NCBI GenBank assembly: GCA_031459535.1
Contig: JAVKIJ010000072.1
Coordinates: forward strand, 1-16,986
Direction: 5' to 3'
Length of the DNA: 16,986 bases
DNA from: Candidatus Fervidifonticultor quintus
GTDB lineage: Bacteria; Sysuimicrobiota; Sysuimicrobiia; Sysuimicrobiales; Humicultoraceae
Below are positions 129 to 5,073 of the stretch, in pieces. A model generated the notes under the pieces. The model was not told where the DNA came from, ran no database searches, and saw only the letters and a program-made list of their open reading frames with translations. Each line of letters opens with the position of its first letter. Positions within the stretch are counted from its first letter, which is position 1. The translations under genes and the position numbers were made by a program.

Positions 129-938
129 CTAGCGACCGCCGATCCGGGGCCCCAGGGCCGAGGCCGCCCCAAACAATAGCAGCGCCACCAGCACGATGGC
201 TCCACCGGCCGCCACATCGAGATAGAACGACGCCATCATCCCCACCAGCACCGCGACCAGGGAGCAGGCGGCCGCCAGCACCAGGGTCTCGCGGAAACTG
301 CGGGCCAGCCGAAGGGCCGTGAGCGCAGGGATCACCAGCAGACCGCTGGTCAGCAGAATGCCCACGATGCGCATCACCACCACCACCGTCACCGCCGTCA
401 AGGCGGTGAGCAGCAGATTGATGGCGTCCACCGCAACGCCCTGTACCCGGGCACCCTCCTCATCAAACGTAATGGCGAACAGCTCCTTGTACATGAGGAC
501 CACATGCCCCAGCACCGCCAGCCCCAGGATCAGGATGACCCACAGGTCGCGCGGCTGCACCACCGTGATGGCGCCGAACAGATAGGAGAACAACTCCACG
601 TTGAAGCCGTTGGCCAGACTGATCAGCACCACGGCCACGGCAAACCCGCCGGAGAGGGCCATGGCCAGGACCGCTTCACCGAACAGCCGGCCGGAGACCC
701 GCAGCCGCTCGATGCCCACCGCCCCCACCAGCGCGGCCACCAGGGCCCCCGCCACCGGATAGGTGTTCAGGAGGATGCCGGCAGCGACGCCGGCCAGCGC
801 CACGTGCGACAGGGTGTCGGCGATGAGGCTGAGCCGCCGCAGCACGAGAAAGACGCCGATGAGGGGGGCGATGACACCGATCATCAAGCCGGCCAGCATC
901 GCCCGCTGCATGAACCCGTACTGCAGGATCTCCGGCAT
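129..938 (-). CDS. znuB: Zn/Mn ABC transporter permease (ABC-3 family), 269 aa
   Basis: MPEILQYGFMQRAMLAG...GVFLVLRRLSLIADTLSHVALAGVA...LFSYLFG...FDEEGARVQG; many hydrophobic helices. Start reassigned to ATG 938, preceded by AGGTGG and just after the znuC stop. The track's longer N-terminus is a shadow frame. Confidence 0.93.
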   Translation of the reverse strand: MPEILQYGFMQRAMLAGLMIGVIAPLIGVFLVLRRLSLIADTLSHVALAGVAAGILLNTYPVAGALVAALVGAVGIERLRVSGRLFGEAVLAMALSGGFAVAVVLISLANGFNVELFSYLFGAITVVQPRDLWVILILGLAVLGHVVLMYKELFAITFDEEGARVQGVAVDAINLLLTALTAVTVVVVMRIVGILLTSGLLVIPALTALRLARSFRETLVLAAACSLVAVLVGMMASFYLDVAAGGAIVLVALLLFGAASALGPRIGGR

Positions 939-946
939 CGCGCCAC

Positions 947-1738
947 CTAGTGCCGGTGGGTCACCACCAGGCTCTCCGGGCGGTACATCCGGGCGACGGC
1001 CCCGCACCGGATTGCCTCCTCGGGGTCGCCGTGGAACACCAAGCTCCGGTTCAGGCACGCCAGCCGGTTCACTTCCTGGGCAATCACCGAGATGTCGTGG
1101 GACACCAGGACCAGGGTCGTTCCCATGTCCCGGTTGAGCCGACGCAGCAGGCTGTAGAACTGCTCCTGGGCTTCGACGTCCACGCCGACCGTGGGTTCGT
1201 CCAGCACCAACAGATCGGGGTGGGTCGCCAGCGCCCGGGCGATGAACACGCGCTGCTGCTGCCCGGCTGAGAGCCGGCCGATGAGCCGATCGCGGAACCC
1301 GGCCATCCCCACGGTCTCCAGTACCGCCAGGGCCGCCTCGCGGTCTTCCCTGGTGAAGCGTCGCGCCAGACCCGCGCGGCCGCACCGCCCGGACAGGACC
1401 ACCTCGAAGACGCTGGCCGGGAACCGCGACTCGAACGCCACCGCCTTCTGCGGCACATAGCCGATGCGGTGCCAGTCGCGGAACTCCCTGACGCTGATCC
1501 CGAAGAGCCGCACATGCCCGCACTCGGAACGTGCCAGCCCCAGCATGATCCGCAGCAGGGTGGTCTTGCCGCCGCCGTTGGGGCCAATAACGCCCAGGAA
1601 GTCGCCCCGCTCGATCCGCAGGCTGACCTCGTGCAACACCTGGTCAGCCCCGTAGCTGAAGCAGACGTGCTCCAGCTCCACCAGCGGCGCGGTGCTATGG
1701 GCAGTCCAGCCCTTCGACGAGCTGTTGGAGATTCTCAT
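947..1738 (-). CDS. znuC: Zn/Mn ABC transporter ATP-binding protein
   Basis: Walker A GPNGGGKTT, IGYVPQ, signature LSAGQQQR, Walker B LLVLDEPT, LVSHD, C-terminal HRH. Start uncertain (ATG 1738 inside znuA, or GTG 1681); see findings. Confidence 0.92.
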   Translation of the reverse strand: MRISNSSSKGWTAHSTAPLVELEHVCFSYGADQVLHEVSLRIERGDFLGVIGPNGGGKTTLLRIMLGLARSECGHVRLFGISVREFRDWHRIGYVPQKAVAFESRFPASVFEVVLSGRCGRAGLARRFTREDREAALAVLETVGMAGFRDRLIGRLSAGQQQRVFIARALATHPDLLVLDEPTVGVDVEAQEQFYSLLRRLNRDMGTTLVLVSHDISVIAQEVNRLACLNRSLVFHGDPEEAIRCGAVARMYRPESLVVTHRH

Positions 1739-2639
1739 TCATCACCGTGAAGTAGGTAGCCCCTACCGCCTGCCGATCAAGCGTCAGGCCTTCCACCGGA
1801 TCGAGGACCAGCGTCCTGGCGCCAACCTCGCGGGCGATGGTCTGCGCCACCTTGGGGCTGGCCAGCGTCTCAAAGTAGATCGCGCGCACCCGATACTGCC
1901 GCACCTGGTGCAGGACCTGCCGCAGGCGAATGGGCGACGGCTCGGCCTCCGGGGAGAGACCCGAGATGGCGATCATGCGCAGGCCGTACCGCCGTGCGAA
2001 ATAGGAGAAGGCGGCGTGGGCCGTGACGATGGTCCGCTGACGACACCTCCCCAGCCGTACGGCGATCCGTTCGTGCAGGGCCGCCAGATCGGCCTCCAGC
2101 GATGCGGCATTGGCCCGGTACACCTCCCGCCGACCGGGGTCGACCCTGGCGAGGGCGTCCAGGATGCGGCCGGCCTGGCGCTGGGCCAGCAGCGGATCGA
2201 GCCACACATGCGGGTCTGCCCTGGCGGCCTCGCGCTGCTCCCGCCTGCCGGCCCCGTGAGGCTGGTCGTCGTGCCGCCCCGCGAGGAGCAGGAGGCCCGC
2301 CGTGGTGTCGACGCGCTCCACGGTCTCCGGGAGCGTGGGCAGCACCTTCTCGACCCAGGGCTCGAATCCTGCACCGTTGTAGACCAGCACCCGGGCCCGA
2401 TGGAGGGTGGCCATGTCCTGGGCCGAGGGTTCGAAGTCGTGCGGCGAGACCCCGGGAGGGACCAGGTTGCGCACGTCGACGCCGTCGCCGCCGATGCGCT
2501 TGGTGAACTCGTAGAGGGGATAGAACGAGGCGATCACCGAGATCCTGGCCGGCGCCTGGCCGGGCTGCGGCCTCCCGAGGGGCGACGCGCAGCCGCCGAC
2601 CAGCACCGCAAGCACCACAGAGAGCGCGGGCCACCTCAT
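1695..2639 (-). CDS. znuA: Zn ABC transporter substrate-binding lipoprotein (cluster A-I), 314 aa
   Basis: Signal peptide with lipobox (MRWPALSVVLAVLVGG-C); SFYPLYEF, SPHDFEP, DPHVWLDP, TAHAAFSYF and DPVEG motifs; short His/Asp loop RHDDQPH. ATG 2639 overlaps the zur TGA (ATGA coupling). Confidence 0.93.
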   Translation of the reverse strand: MRWPALSVVLAVLVGGCASPLGRPQPGQAPARISVIASFYPLYEFTKRIGGDGVDVRNLVPPGVSPHDFEPSAQDMATLHRARVLVYNGAGFEPWVEKVLPTLPETVERVDTTAGLLLLAGRHDDQPHGAGRREQREAARADPHVWLDPLLAQRQAGRILDALARVDPGRREVYRANAASLEADLAALHERIAVRLGRCRQRTIVTAHAAFSYFARRYGLRMIAISGLSPEAEPSPIRLRQVLHQVRQYRVRAIYFETLASPKVAQTIAREVGARTLVLDPVEGLTLDRQAVGATYFTVMNENLQQLVEGLDCP

Positions 2640-3094
2640 CGCGCCGGCACCCCGACCTGCCGCGACCGCTGGGCGTCGCGGACGAGGCGACCGCGCCCGA
2701 GAAAGCTGCGGCACCTGGCACAGTAGCCAAACATCTCCAGCTGGTGCCCCGTGATCTCGAACCCCGCCAGGCGGCGGGGGATGGCTGGCACCGGGCAGCC
2801 GTTGATCGATCGCCAGGCCCCGCAGACCAGACACACCACGTGATCGTGGTGCCTGGCCGCTAGCCCGTAGCGCACTCTGCCGTCCCCCACGTGGGCGGGC
2901 TCGACGAGTCCTTCCTGGACGAAGAGACCGAGCGCACGGTACACGGTGGCCAGACCAATGGGTCGCCGGCGACGCCTCAGGCGCCTGTGGAGCTCCTCGG
3001 CGGTGAGATGACATGGCGCGTCGGCCATGGCCTCCAGAATCGCCTGGCGCTGCCAGGTGTCCCGCTGGCGGAGAGGGCGACGAATCCCGGGCAT
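2636..3094 (-). CDS. zur: Fur-family metalloregulator, probably Zur, 152 aa
   Basis: HLTAEELH, IGLATVYRAL, HHDHVVCLVCG and GYCARC (two CxxC); first gene of the znu operon; GAGG 8 nt before ATG 3094. The family is clear; zinc specificity is inferred from context. Confidence 0.88.
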   Translation of the reverse strand: MPGIRRPLRQRDTWQRQAILEAMADAPCHLTAEELHRRLRRRRRPIGLATVYRALGLFVQEGLVEPAHVGDGRVRYGLAARHHDHVVCLVCGAWRSINGCPVPAIPRRLAGFEITGHQLEMFGYCARCRSFLGRGRLVRDAQRSRQVGVPAR

Positions 3095-3106
3095 GCCGGT
3101 CGCCTC

Positions 3107-3131
3107 GTTGTTGAGAATTGTTATCAATAAC
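3107..3131. promoter_or_regulatory. Fur/Zur-type operator (imperfect palindrome)
   Basis: GTTGTTGAGAAT-T-GTTATCAATAAC, 9 of 12 positions symmetric. Core TGAGAAT-N-GTTATCA resembles the 7-1-7 Fur-family box TGATAAT-N-ATTATCA. It is an AT-rich island in GC-rich DNA and overlaps the -10/start region of the zur promoter, implying autoregulation. Confidence 0.8.
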
Positions 3132-3158
3132 CTAGCACGAGCTCAAGACCGTTGTCAA
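3129..3158 (-). promoter_or_regulatory. Sigma70-type promoter of zur-znuACB
   Basis: TTGACA (3158-3153), 18 nt spacer, TAGGTT (3134-3129) with extended -10 TGn. Confidence 0.7.
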
Positions 3159-3202
3159 CCGATCGGTAGCCGCAACCGCTGCACCAGCAGCCAAGGCGGT
3201 AC

Positions 3203-3231
3203 TTGCAATGAGAGTGACCGCCGCGTAGCAT
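3203..3231 (+). promoter_or_regulatory. Sigma70-type promoter of the His-rich ORF-sco-pcuAC unit
   Basis: TTGCAA (3203-3208), 17 nt spacer, TAGCAT (3226-3231). Confidence 0.6.
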
Positions 3232-3265
3232 AATGGCTGCTGCTGTGGTGTCCACCGTCCCTGGT

Positions 3266-3661
3266 ATGCAGGCGCGCCTCATGCTGGCAGCCCTGGCCGG
3301 AAGGCTACTGGTGTCGCTGCTAGGTCCCGCAGCCGTCGAGTGGGATCCCTACCACACCCACGTGACAGTCGGGGGTACGCCGCGGCAGCGGGCGGCAGCG
3401 CTCGCGCACCACCGGCACGATCACACCCGGCATGCCACGACCTGCCACGACCATGACGGCGCCGGAGCCCGGGTCCTGTCCATCACCTCCGGCTCGGCGA
3501 CCGGCGCGCTGGTTGCCAGCCTCACCGGTGCCGCGTCCGCGGTCACTGCCGGGACCGGGGTCCCCGGGCCCGCACCCTCGGGACGCATACCGCCGTCAGT
3601 TCACCCTTGCCACAGTCTGATCGCCCACGGGGTTCCAGAGCCTCCCCCAGAGGTCGCCTGA
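3266..3661 (+). CDS. Hypothetical His-rich exported/membrane protein with C-terminal PEPPP; candidate CutF/CruR-like leader, about 131 aa
   Basis: Hydrophobic N-terminus, DPYHTH, HHRHDHTRHATTCHDH, Ala/Gly/Ser linker, HPCHSLIAH, end GVPEPPPEVA*. Fills the gap between the promoter and sco. ATG 3266 preferred because ATG 3233 abuts the -10 box; no clear SD for either start. Confidence 0.65.
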   Translation: MQARLMLAALAGRLLVSLLGPAAVEWDPYHTHVTVGGTPRQRAAALAHHRHDHTRHATTCHDHDGAGARVLSITSGSATGALVASLTGAASAVTAGTGVPGPAPSGRIPPSVHPCHSLIAHGVPEPPPEVA

Positions 3662-3756
3662 CCCTCATCCAGCCGGCGGACCCACCGTGCGCGCACGGGT
3701 GCGCGTCAGGCCCAAGAGGCAGACACCGTCCGCGGCACGGCATCAGGAGGCAGATC

Positions 3757-4332
3757 ATGCGACGCATGTTGGTGACCATGGTAGCCGTCATGCTGGCCGC
3801 TTCGTGCCAGCGCGCCAGCTTCCGCGGGAAGGTGCTGCCGGACCCGCGACCGGTTCCCGCGCTGACCCTGACAGACCAGCACGAGCGCCCGTTCAACTTC
3901 GCCGAGCAACGGGGAAAGGTGTTGCTGGTCTTCTTCGGCTACACCCGGTGTCCGGATGTGTGCCCGTTGACCCTGGGCACGTTCAAGCAGGTGGCCAAGC
4001 AATTGGGCCGCGACGCCGCTGGCGTGCGGTTCGTGTTCGTCACCGTGGACCCGGAGCAGGACACGCCGGCCTTCCTCGAGCGCTACCTGCGCCTGTTCAA
4101 CCCGGACTTCGTCGGCCTAACAGGCACGGCGGAGCAGCTCAAACCCGTCTATGCGTTCTTCGGGACCTCATTCCGAAAGGTACCGGATCCGAAGAGCGCC
4201 GTCGGCTATCTCATGGCTCACTCAGTCAATACGGCCGTCGTCGATCGGGCGGGCCGGTGGCGTTTGAACATCGGCCACGACACGGCGGCCGGCGACATCG
4301 AGCACGACCTCAGGCTGTTGTTGCGACAGTGA
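3757..4332 (+). CDS. senC: SCO1/SenC copper chaperone (lipoprotein), 191 aa
   Basis: AGGAGG 6 nt before ATG 3757; lipobox LAAS-C; FFGYTRCPDVCP (CxxxC), VTVDPEQDTP, conserved His in YLMAHS. Confidence 0.94.
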   Translation: MRRMLVTMVAVMLAASCQRASFRGKVLPDPRPVPALTLTDQHERPFNFAEQRGKVLLVFFGYTRCPDVCPLTLGTFKQVAKQLGRDAAGVRFVFVTVDPEQDTPAFLERYLRLFNPDFVGLTGTAEQLKPVYAFFGTSFRKVPDPKSAVGYLMAHSVNTAVVDRAGRWRLNIGHDTAAGDIEHDLRLLLRQ

Positions 4333-4359
4333 GATCTCACCCAGAGGAGCGTGGTGTCC

Positions 4360-4821
4360 ATGCACGACTACCGAAAGTTGGGAAGTGCCCTGGTCGGCCT
4401 GATCATGGCAGGCGCGTTGGCTGCCTGGGCGGGATCGGCGTCGGCGCACGAAGCGGCCAAGATTCGCATCGCGAACGCGTGGGCTCGACCGGGCATCGCC
4501 AGCGCCGCGACGCCGCCAGGCCACATGGGCACGAAGATGCCCGGCAACTCGGCGATCTACATGGTGATCTACAACGACGGCACCGCCAGCGACCGTCTGG
4601 TCGGCGCGAGCACCGACGTGGCGAAGACCGTGGAACTCCATCGGACTACGGTGGAGGGCGGCATGGCGCAGATGAGGAGGATCGCCGGTATTGATGTCCC
4701 GGCCAATGGCAAGGTGGAGCTGAAACCGGGCGGCCTGCACGTGATGCTGATCGGGCTGAAGCGTGACCTCAAGGCCGGCGACACGTTCCCAGTTACGCTC
4801 ACGTTCCAGAGGTCTGGCTAG
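4360..4821 (+). CDS. PCu(A)C periplasmic copper chaperone; TAG at 4819-4821 looks premature, and the family-like frame continues to TGA at 4852-4854
   Basis: Signal peptide ending ASA-H; AWAR, SAIYM and DRLVGA motifs; exact H-x10-M-x21-H-x-M copper motif (ELHRTTVEGGMAQM...PGGLHVM). The start could also be GTG 4351 or 4354; SD AGGAG at 4345-4349. Confidence 0.9.
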   Translation: MHDYRKLGSALVGLIMAGALAAWAGSASAHEAAKIRIANAWARPGIASAATPPGHMGTKMPGNSAIYMVIYNDGTASDRLVGASTDVAKTVELHRTTVEGGMAQMRRIAGIDVPANGKVELKPGGLHVMLIGLKRDLKAGDTFPVTLTFQRSG

Positions 4822-5073
4822 GTGCGGCTGACCGTGCAGGTCCGCGCGCCCTGATTCTCGCCAGAGAAACACTGACGCGGCCGGGCCGGGGAAGGCAGAT
4901 GGGGATGCGACGGTGCGCCGCAGTTGCCCGCTGGGCGCTGCGGAAGTCCTTCGTCGCGAGTCACCAGGCGCCGTGCCGGATTCGGCGACTGGCAGGTTTC
5001 TTCCCCGGGTCCCGACCGCGTCATCTTCCAGACGCTGGTCGTCCGCTCGCGCGCTCCGAGGGGCTCCCCGGGG

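Follow-up and report, generated by a model that had tools for sequence, protein, structure and literature searches.

Copper-sensing leader peptides that stall their own ribosomes are reportedly a young class (CruR 2022; CutF 2023 and 2025), and those known so far, mostly from Proteobacteria, are defined by Cys motifs, by RAPP or RGPP sequences or by the DUF2946 family. In the excerpts of the sources on which the comparisons in this study draw, CutF (Rhodobacter capsulatus, cutFOG) combines a Sec signal with a CxxxC motif and ends in PEPEGPPPRL; regulation is abolished when its PPP is replaced by PAP, loss of elongation factor P (EF-P) mimics copper, and the pause lets a stem-loop that masks the cutO Shine-Dalgarno sequence melt (PMC9973294; bioRxiv 10.1101/2025.02.05.636593). 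CruR (Bp2923, Bordetella pertussis), of the DUF2946 group, has a CXXC motif and a RAPP motif 3 residues before its end, with a CXXC-RAPP spacing of 45 residues that is kept within 1-2; an export signal is found in >95% of members, the operons of the group include Sco, PCuAC, YcnI and CopC, and in CruR, which is independent of EF-P, copper relieves the arrest, whereupon Rho terminates transcription (PMC9426467). The subject of this study is an open reading frame (ORF) of Candidatus Fervidifonticultor quintus, located at 3233..3661 on the + strand of contig JAVKIJ010000072.1, whose 16,986 nucleotides (nt) are referred to here as the window. It precedes the copper chaperone genes sco and pcuAC. 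Judged by its sequence, the ORF is probably a histidine-based, PPP-type metal-sensing arrest leader, and the reading that we favor, with moderate confidence, is that its product is a co-translationally exported sensor peptide controlling sco-pcuAC translation in cis. The features observed at these loci that bear on this reading are the anatomy of the product, its fixed internal spacing, its operon position, a codon bias and a predicted RNA pairing.

The leader belongs to an unannotated family. A single-query search with it found three close relatives in a 90%-clustered database; of 41 related genomes, 16 gave a match at E ≤ 0.01, with spurious cases (e.g., L015) among the weakest. A profile of 16 curated members (alignment A1), run against 1.84 billion proteins, recovered 154 representative clusters at E ≤ 1e-3 and 93 at E ≤ 1e-10, and placed the family in 23 of the 94 genomes of the phylum and in 14 of its 31 genera, all in one order. 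No Pfam cut-off was reached by the 16 A1 members (E ≤ 1) or by 146 representatives (E ≤ 0.01), and no NCBIfam cut-off by any of the 16. The close relatives, from metagenome-assembled genomes labelled Armatimonadota, carry the public name "hypothetical protein." Weak matches to DUF6153 (E 0.31; one of 16 members, none in the window's genome) and LpqS (E 0.42; one of 16 members) were dropped, and the CzcI cluster that the ESM Atlas lists at 0.95, with only 111 shared features, is taken as a lead only. Some family members are longer than 150 amino acids.

Conservation is limited to a helix at the N-terminus, a His motif and the PPP at the end, the pattern that the preliminary description of the locus had named as supporting its idea, and to a second conserved block. 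All of these elements lie on the + strand. A hydrophobic export or anchor segment (3272..3325, residues ~14-31) is present in all 16 A1 rows, its character being kept and its sequence not; ahead of the HxH motif, the highest Kyte-Doolittle value over 15 residues has a family median of 2.4. Block 1 (3338..3415; E-W-D-P-Y-H-T-H-V-T-V-G-G…A-L-A-H) holds a candidate metal triad formed by H41 (codon 3353-3355), H43 (3359-3361) and H60 (3410-3412). These three residues, together with P138 and P139, are invariant in a 100-sequence family alignment (A3; 100/100), and P39, G47, L57 and P137 are conserved in at least 90% of its sequences. Block 2 (3470..3517; R-V-L-S-I-…G…V, with an Ala/Gly/Ser stretch of weak hydrophobicity after it) contains V81, which is invariant in A1, and S83 and V94, which are at least 90% conserved there. 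The blocks are joined by linker 1 (3416..3469), which is His/Cys-rich in the window (HDHTRHATTCHDHD…) but spans 12-52 residues family-wide with no conservation of sequence. Linker 2 (3518..3628), between block 2 and the tail, is a low-complexity spacer of fixed length and variable sequence, with column identities mostly of 10-30% and a composition of A 15%, P 13%, L 12.5% and G 10%.

The two linkers differ in how strictly their lengths are kept. In A3, the distance from V81 to P137 across linker 2 has a median of 55 residues (range 51-58, standard deviation 1.1), and that from H60 to V81 across linker 1 a median of 30 (range 12-52, standard deviation 6.6); within block 1, H43 and H60 are a median of 16 residues apart (range 15-17, standard deviation 0.4). 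Regular-expression counts on the representatives place block 2 a median of 56 residues ahead of PP (10th-90th percentile 51-58; n = 93/121 scored), and the HxH motif 96-113 residues ahead of it (10th-90th percentiles). The window's product has 12 His and 2 Cys, the latter 58 residues apart, with any of its candidate start codons. The hydrophobic N-terminus, this residue count, the motifs YHTH, HHRHDHTRHATTCHDH and HPCHSLIAH, the low-complexity spacer, and PEPPP three residues before the stop are all present as they had been described. The main His cluster (residues 60-75) lies 62-78 residues ahead of PPP, close to the 70-85 given earlier. The conserved ligand candidates, however, are H41, H43 and H60; across the family this long cluster is variable, and so are the HPCH…H stretch and the two Cys.

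The tail (3629..3658; G-V-P-E-P-P-P-E-V-A) is of the stall type. In the window the PPP codons, CCT CCC CCA, occupy 3641-3649 and are followed by EVA and the stop. Among 149 representatives shorter than 260 amino acids, PPP occurs within the last 15 residues in 134 and PP in 144, whereas only six contain C-x(2-3)-C. PPP is followed by three residues in 73 of the 134 and by four in 32 (together 105/134); the commonest forms are PDPPPR (29) and PEPPPR (23), and the top 25 all read x-x-PPP-[RKE]. In both window and family the tail thus presents three consecutive Pro in a D/E-P-P-P context, and D/E-PPP is a strong EF-P-dependent pause context.

Each of the conserved elements is one that a metal-sensing, ribosome-stalling switch would require. 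In the proposed mechanism, the N-terminal hydrophobic segment would target the nascent chain to the Sec translocon, and the P-x-H-x-H…H triad (H41, H43, H60) would reach the outer face of the membrane. The ribosome would pause at P-E-P-P-P (3641-3649), three codons ahead of the stop. Ribosomal tunnel and translocon together span ~50-60 residues, a distance at which pulling force arises from segments that fold or are hydrophobic. During the pause, block 2 (V81-x-S83), ~55 residues behind the peptidyl-transferase center, would just be leaving the tunnel and translocon, where metal binding by the His triad and joint folding of the two blocks may alter the pulling force and set the duration of the pause. 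A paused ribosome would cover the last ~30 nt of the ORF, freeing the sco Shine-Dalgarno sequence for initiation; after a short pause the helix would re-form and sco-pcuAC expression would be low. The metal is likely to be copper, given the genomic context. As for polarity, we lean slightly toward copper shortening the pause and lowering sco-pcuAC expression, by analogy with CruR, because copper acquisition and insertion are the functions of the downstream genes, as they are in CruR-type operons; the opposite, CutF-like response is possible. A more far-reaching version of this reading, which we consider possible but doubtful, is that the family represents an independent, non-homologous invention of an extracytoplasmic metal-sensing arrest peptide, in which metal-dependent folding of a His3 site with block 2 at the translocon exit would supply the force that ends a polyproline pause, and in which rare CCU/CCA codons would double as an anti-Shine-Dalgarno sequence gating the synthesis of Sco/PCuAC or CopC/CopD.

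Much of this conservation could also be that of an ordinary protein. The leader would then be a stable, membrane-anchored or secreted copper-binding protein that works in trans alongside Sco, PCuAC or CopC, as a His3 metallochaperone or buffer. P[D/E]PPPR would have a role in structure or in interactions, and its complementarity to the Shine-Dalgarno sequence would be a side effect of the Pro codons. We regard this as unlikely, although an invariant His triad with a fixed 16-residue spacing resembles a real metal site and a folded domain would also be expected to have fixed spacing. An AlphaFold2 model computed with A3 (predicted local distance difference test, pLDDT, 73.4; predicted template modeling score, pTM, 0.45; pLDDT 87 at residues 131-140) contains a helix at 11-29, a strand at 42-46 beside H41 and H43, a helix at 50-65 that bears H60, and strands at 80-85, 94-97 and 100-102, followed by coil to the end. 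A Foldseek comparison of the model with the PDB found no similar solved structure (best E 3.1), and the single-sequence model of the ESM Atlas is poor (pLDDT 0.51). The 55-residue spacer, with its low complexity and low column identity, and the placement of the Pro motif, which in 105 of 134 sequences is separated from the stop by 3-4 residues and which matches the validated stall motif of CutF, also speak against an ordinary protein. In genome G001, of the same genus, an ORF upstream of sco (L148:964-1461, + strand) has a hydrophobic segment and ends in …PVPDPPPRAT-stop without a P-x-H-x-H…H block. This variant, in which tail and position are kept despite the missing putative metal site, counts against an ordinary metal-binding protein and in favor of an arrest leader.

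Operon position also bears on the two readings. In the window, the leader is followed by a 95-nt intergenic region (3662..3756, + strand) with a GC-rich hairpin and the sco Shine-Dalgarno sequence (AGGAGG, 3745-3750), then by sco (3757..4332, + strand; a SCO1/SenC copper chaperone with a lipoprotein-type N-terminus; PF02630, E 2.2e-39) and pcuAC (4351..4821, + strand; a PCu(A)C copper chaperone; PF04314, E 1.7e-36). Family loci were found in 28 places, of which 25, including the window itself, were analysed; L042 (contig end), L049 (no PPP, no clear downstream gene) and L050 (in-frame TAG) were dropped. At each of the 25, the leader stop is followed after 36-274 nt (at most 110 nt in 21 of them) by the start of a gene on the same strand that has a Shine-Dalgarno sequence. 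By Pfam, this gene is SCO1/SenC at seven loci, CopC at three and CopD at two, and has no Pfam family at 13. The expectation that homologs stand upstream of metal-handling genes is thus borne out in position at every locus and in identity at the 12 with Pfam copper families, the other 13 being followed by an unnamed secreted protein. That the downstream partner varies (Sco, CopC, CopD, unnamed) while the position and a 36-110-nt gap are kept argues against an ordinary protein; in favor of one, the leader is not always first in its operon, as a closely spaced same-strand gene lies upstream of it in G004 and G002. At these loci (L010:5674-6378 in G004; L022:3481-4185 in G002), the gene encodes a membrane-anchored protein of ~234 amino acids and ends a few bases ahead of the leader. 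This copper context applies to the window's own phylum; among distant branches, examination of the genomic context gave one weak match for P0117 and none for P0065 and P0141.

The unnamed secreted protein has ~140-160 or 180-220 amino acids and no Pfam family even at E ≤ 1. Its predicted mature end starts with His (…AHE[T/Q/E][K/R]xVG…), and examples are L029:1031-1462, L033:962-1417, L032:2066-2701, L034:761-1405 and L040:2072-2713, plus eight more. At two loci CopC/CopD-like genes, identified by eye, come next, and the protein may constitute an undescribed copper-binding family. The only two metagenome loci found with a narrower alignment (A4), both from close relatives, have the layouts leader-sco-pcuAC and leader-unnamed-copCD. 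At L037:1946-3166, a CopD protein fused to YtkA-like and cytochrome c domains lies downstream of a leader, after a gap that at 274 nt is unusually long.

The codons of the stall motif provide a further line of evidence. A candidate anti-Shine-Dalgarno sequence lies inside them (3636..3645, + strand), and its GCCUCC (3640-3645) pairs with GGAGGC (3746-3751) of the sco Shine-Dalgarno sequence in the minimum free energy and centroid folds of 3620-3775. Family-wide, the PPP codons are enriched in rare CCU/CCA: 22 of 42 end in A or T, compared with a background of 46/218 Pro codons (21%) elsewhere in the same ORFs, 334/2076 (16%) in flanking genes and 12/66 (18%) in PPP runs of flanking genes. The 3′ end of the ORF pairs with the 13-nt Shine-Dalgarno zone at a native mean of 6.3/13, versus 4.3/13 for synonymous recodings (forty per locus, n = 25; Wilcoxon p = 0.0014, a value that is overstated because the loci are related to one another). 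Both the rare Pro codons specifically at PPP and the stronger pairing of native codons stand against an ordinary protein. At fourteen loci, the summed pairing probability of the stall codons with the Shine-Dalgarno sequence is at least 5/7 in seven, and neighboring codons pair in most of the others. With a modeled 28-nt ribosome footprint on PPP, Shine-Dalgarno accessibility across the family rises to 0.35, compared with 0.21 in its absence and 0.22 when a control footprint is placed 45 nt upstream.

A pause at PPP need not act on the Shine-Dalgarno sequence. It could instead control read-through, by Rho-dependent termination as in CruR, or mRNA stability, making the ORF a dual-function or differently wired leader. 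The 95-nt intergenic region with its C-rich 5′ end would suit such an arrangement, as would the window's Shine-Dalgarno sequence, which remains paired in the stalled-ribosome model. We consider this distinctly improbable: the codon and pairing statistics of the family favor masking of the Shine-Dalgarno sequence by the 3′ end of the ORF, and no intrinsic terminator was found between leader and sco, the sole terminator-like site in 3000-4900 being at 3905-3926, inside sco.

Several results weigh against an arrest leader of the proposed kind, and the first concern RNA, where the predicted support in the window itself is ambiguous. The fold of 3620-3775 is no more stable than those of shuffled sequences (z = 0.38). 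The predicted partner of the sco Shine-Dalgarno sequence shifts with fragment length from 3640-3645 to 3609..3618 (+ strand; GCCACAGUCU), the summed pairing probability of the stall codons being 5.7/7 in short fragments and only 0.3-0.6/7 in long ones. The alternative partner reaches 4.7-4.9/7 in three of the four fragments that contain it (5′ ends 3238, 3551 and 3600), the main partner in the fragment with 5′ end 3400 being 3444-3448, and it stays paired under an imposed ribosome footprint at 3632-3661. Accessibility of the sco Shine-Dalgarno sequence is 0.17 in the free RNA, 0.13 with a stalled ribosome and 0.39 with a control footprint, so that the modeled stall does not open it. Swapping Shine-Dalgarno sequences between loci changes the duplex energy only from −17.7 kcal/mol (native) to −15.0 kcal/mol (non-native). 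Given this small change, much of the complementarity between Pro codons and Shine-Dalgarno sequences is generic, and because the swap control is weak no helix covariation is claimed. Generic complementarity and a window RNA model that does not respond to the stall would both be in keeping with an ordinary protein.

The remaining points are of other kinds. EF-P normally relieves polyproline pauses. No convincing ribosome-binding site was found for the leader, whose start codon is uncertain as well. Genome G003, of the same genus, has sco without any leader ORF (L149). A stable folded leader protein stays within the range of the possible, since the AlphaFold2 model, with its small sheet and helix, is moderately confident. 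A comparison of A3 by hhalign with A2, a small set of 10 alphaproteobacterial PF11162 matches in which CutF itself is absent, gave a probability of 4%, with an alignment limited to 33 columns in the hydrophobic segment, and hence no detectable homology to DUF2946. Export, pausing, metal binding, action in cis and polarity are, moreover, all things that we infer.

The frame of the leader is open from 3218 to TGA 3659-3661 and offers three in-frame starts: ATG 3233 (142 amino acids), GTG 3248 (137) and ATG 3266 (131). GTG 3248 is the start called in P0001, a homolog with 96% identity, while ATG 3266 is used in the form held by NCBI and was the one chosen in the preliminary description. It is not certain to be the true start, because the Met of 3266 is Leu in the homologs P0001 and P0002. 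The ORF had been placed between a promoter and the two copper chaperone genes; ORF and genes are there, but a consensus scan of 3000-4900 detected no promoter on the + strand. The sole promoter-like site that it reported in that interval is on the − strand (3254..3227), overlapping the 5′ end of the ORF. A + strand candidate picked by eye, TTGCAA-17-TAGCAT (3203-3231), scores only 8/12, was unreported by the scan and is not relied on. The third-position G+C content of the leader is 0.76-0.78, compared with 0.82-0.91 in neighboring genes, in DNA of 69% G+C. Such values below those of the neighbors, and the failure to find a convincing ribosome-binding site or + strand promoter, are what would be seen if this were no gene and the sco 5′ untranslated region simply happened to contain an open frame. 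That possibility is effectively refuted, as 100 aligned sequences and 154 representative clusters keep the motifs and the frame at identities as low as ~20-30%, with length variation limited to linker 1.

An RNA library, a metatranscriptome produced by the study that also yielded the DNA, contains a 549-nt contig reaching from the leader into sco (3273-3821), with eight differences from the window and in agreement with the P0001 variant. The contig is weakly suggestive of co-transcription of leader and sco, with which it is compatible, carry-over of DNA being possible.

The window also contains, divergent from the leader, a Fur-family regulator (Zur-like) with znuA, znuC and znuB (129-3127, − strand). 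A perfect 12-nt palindrome, GTTATCAATAAC (3120-3131), in the region between regulator and leader (3095-3232) may be the operator of this regulator. The adjacency of zur-znuACB to the leader was observed only in the window and one same-genus genome, G005 (L005/L023). In G004, three paralogous leaders are found on one 117-kb contig (L009, L010); two head sco(-pcuAC) and one heads a unit with the unnamed protein, and two of the three are ~2 kb apart on opposite strands. Degenerate copies occur in G026 (L017/L050), with an in-frame TAG inside block 1, and in G074 (L049), where the PPP tail is gone and no downstream gene is obvious.

If the favored reading as an exported arrest leader is correct, the principle of copper-sensing stalling leaders extends to a Cys-free, three-histidine sensor and, beyond DUF2946, to a purely polyproline stall motif (PPPR). 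It would also reach an uncultured thermophilic lineage, controlling chaperones that load copper into respiratory oxidases. The 55 ± 1-residue ruler, counted from a block without ligands, and the apparent anti-Shine-Dalgarno sequence in the stall codons give testable predictions for a system in which metal outside the cell would set the length of a ribosomal pause. Searches keyed to RAPP/RGPP or PF11162 miss such leaders, the former because the family tail is PPPR. Should the doubtful case of independent invention hold, the combination of signal, metal site, ruler and Pro stall would have evolved repeatedly and would not be the property of one protein family.

The general logic of the proposed switch is shared with SecM, MifM and VemP, in which pulling force ends the pause of an exported chain and the pause unmasks a downstream ribosome-binding site. 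What these monitor is the secretion or insertion machinery instead of a metal, and they are unrelated to the family in arrest sequence. Also comparable are small proteins ending in RAPP or RGPP encoded upstream of YcnI, PCuAC or copper-resistance genes in many phyla, among them Streptomyces lividans SLIV_18480 with three conserved His, one Met and four predicted transmembrane segments (PMC12992588). The family resembles these, as excerpted, in having an arrest-type C-terminal Pro motif upstream of metal genes, and SLIV_18480 in particular in that the latter's predicted copper site is His-based. In the CutF-like catalog, defined by a length below 150 amino acids, PP in the last 15 residues, a signal peptide and a same-strand downstream gene, the His-only clusters 14 and 17 adjoin HupE/UreJ genes, which points to nickel or cobalt (PMC9973294). 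The window ORF conforms to these rules: it encodes 131-142 amino acids with a hydrophobic N-terminus, its PPP is followed by three residues, and sco begins after 95 nt. Like clusters 14 and 17, as they appear in that source, the family combines a CutF-like layout with His as its only candidate ligands; unlike them, it adjoins copper genes. In the light of these reports, an undescribed class of His-ligand sensors, as first suggested, is too strong a claim, His-only CutF-like clusters and His-based RAPP/RGPP leaders being in print. The family itself was not found in any paper in the literature on CutF-like proteins, DUF2946 and copper, and arrest peptides, a survey that did not extend to the catalog in File S1 of PMC9973294.

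The DUF2946-type layout noted at the outset does match that of CutF and CruR, but membership is not supported. The Pfam search that had been suggested as a check returned no family member: PF11162 (cut-off 23.7 bits) matches 0 of 16 A1 members (E ≤ 1), 0 of 146 representatives (E ≤ 0.01) and nothing in the window's genome (E ≤ 1). Plasmid pMOL30 likewise has no PF11162 match, and a degenerate DNA pattern for a CutF-type …EGPPPRL-stop had no match in 401 alphaproteobacterial genomes. The ten alphaproteobacterial PF11162 members (L133, L135-L143) have C-x-x-C or a similar motif and RAPP followed by 1-7 residues to the stop (at most five in nine of them), and can serve as a reference set for DUF2946.

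Set beside CutF, so far as the excerpted reports describe it, the family shares an N-terminal export-type signal, a metal motif and a low-complexity spacer, a C-terminal …PPPR with 1-3 further residues before the stop (P[D/E]PPPR being nearly the same as the GPPPRL-stop of CutF), and a position directly upstream of a copper gene, the target Shine-Dalgarno sequence in CutF being masked by mRNA structure. The sizes are 118 amino acids for CutF and 131-142 for the window leader. The candidate ligands differ, H-x-H…H in the family and CxxxC with two more Cys in CutF, and so do the targets, Sco/PCuAC, CopC or CopD as against a multicopper oxidase. The hosts are an uncultured hot-spring lineage (NCBI label Armatimonadota) and Pseudomonadota, respectively, and in the family, unlike CutF, the candidate anti-Shine-Dalgarno sequence lies in the stall codons. 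With CruR, within the same limits of the source, the family has in common an exported-type upstream ORF that heads a copper operon, an arrest-type motif three residues short of the C-terminus, and a spacing between a conserved element and that motif that is fixed within 1-2 residues. It uses PPPR and His where CruR uses RAPP and CXXC, and its fixed distance is 55 residues from block 2, the His triad being 96-113 residues away, whereas that of CruR is 45 residues from the sensor motif itself. Although not demonstrably a DUF2946 member, the family would, on the strength of these sequence comparisons, work like the DUF2946 leaders.

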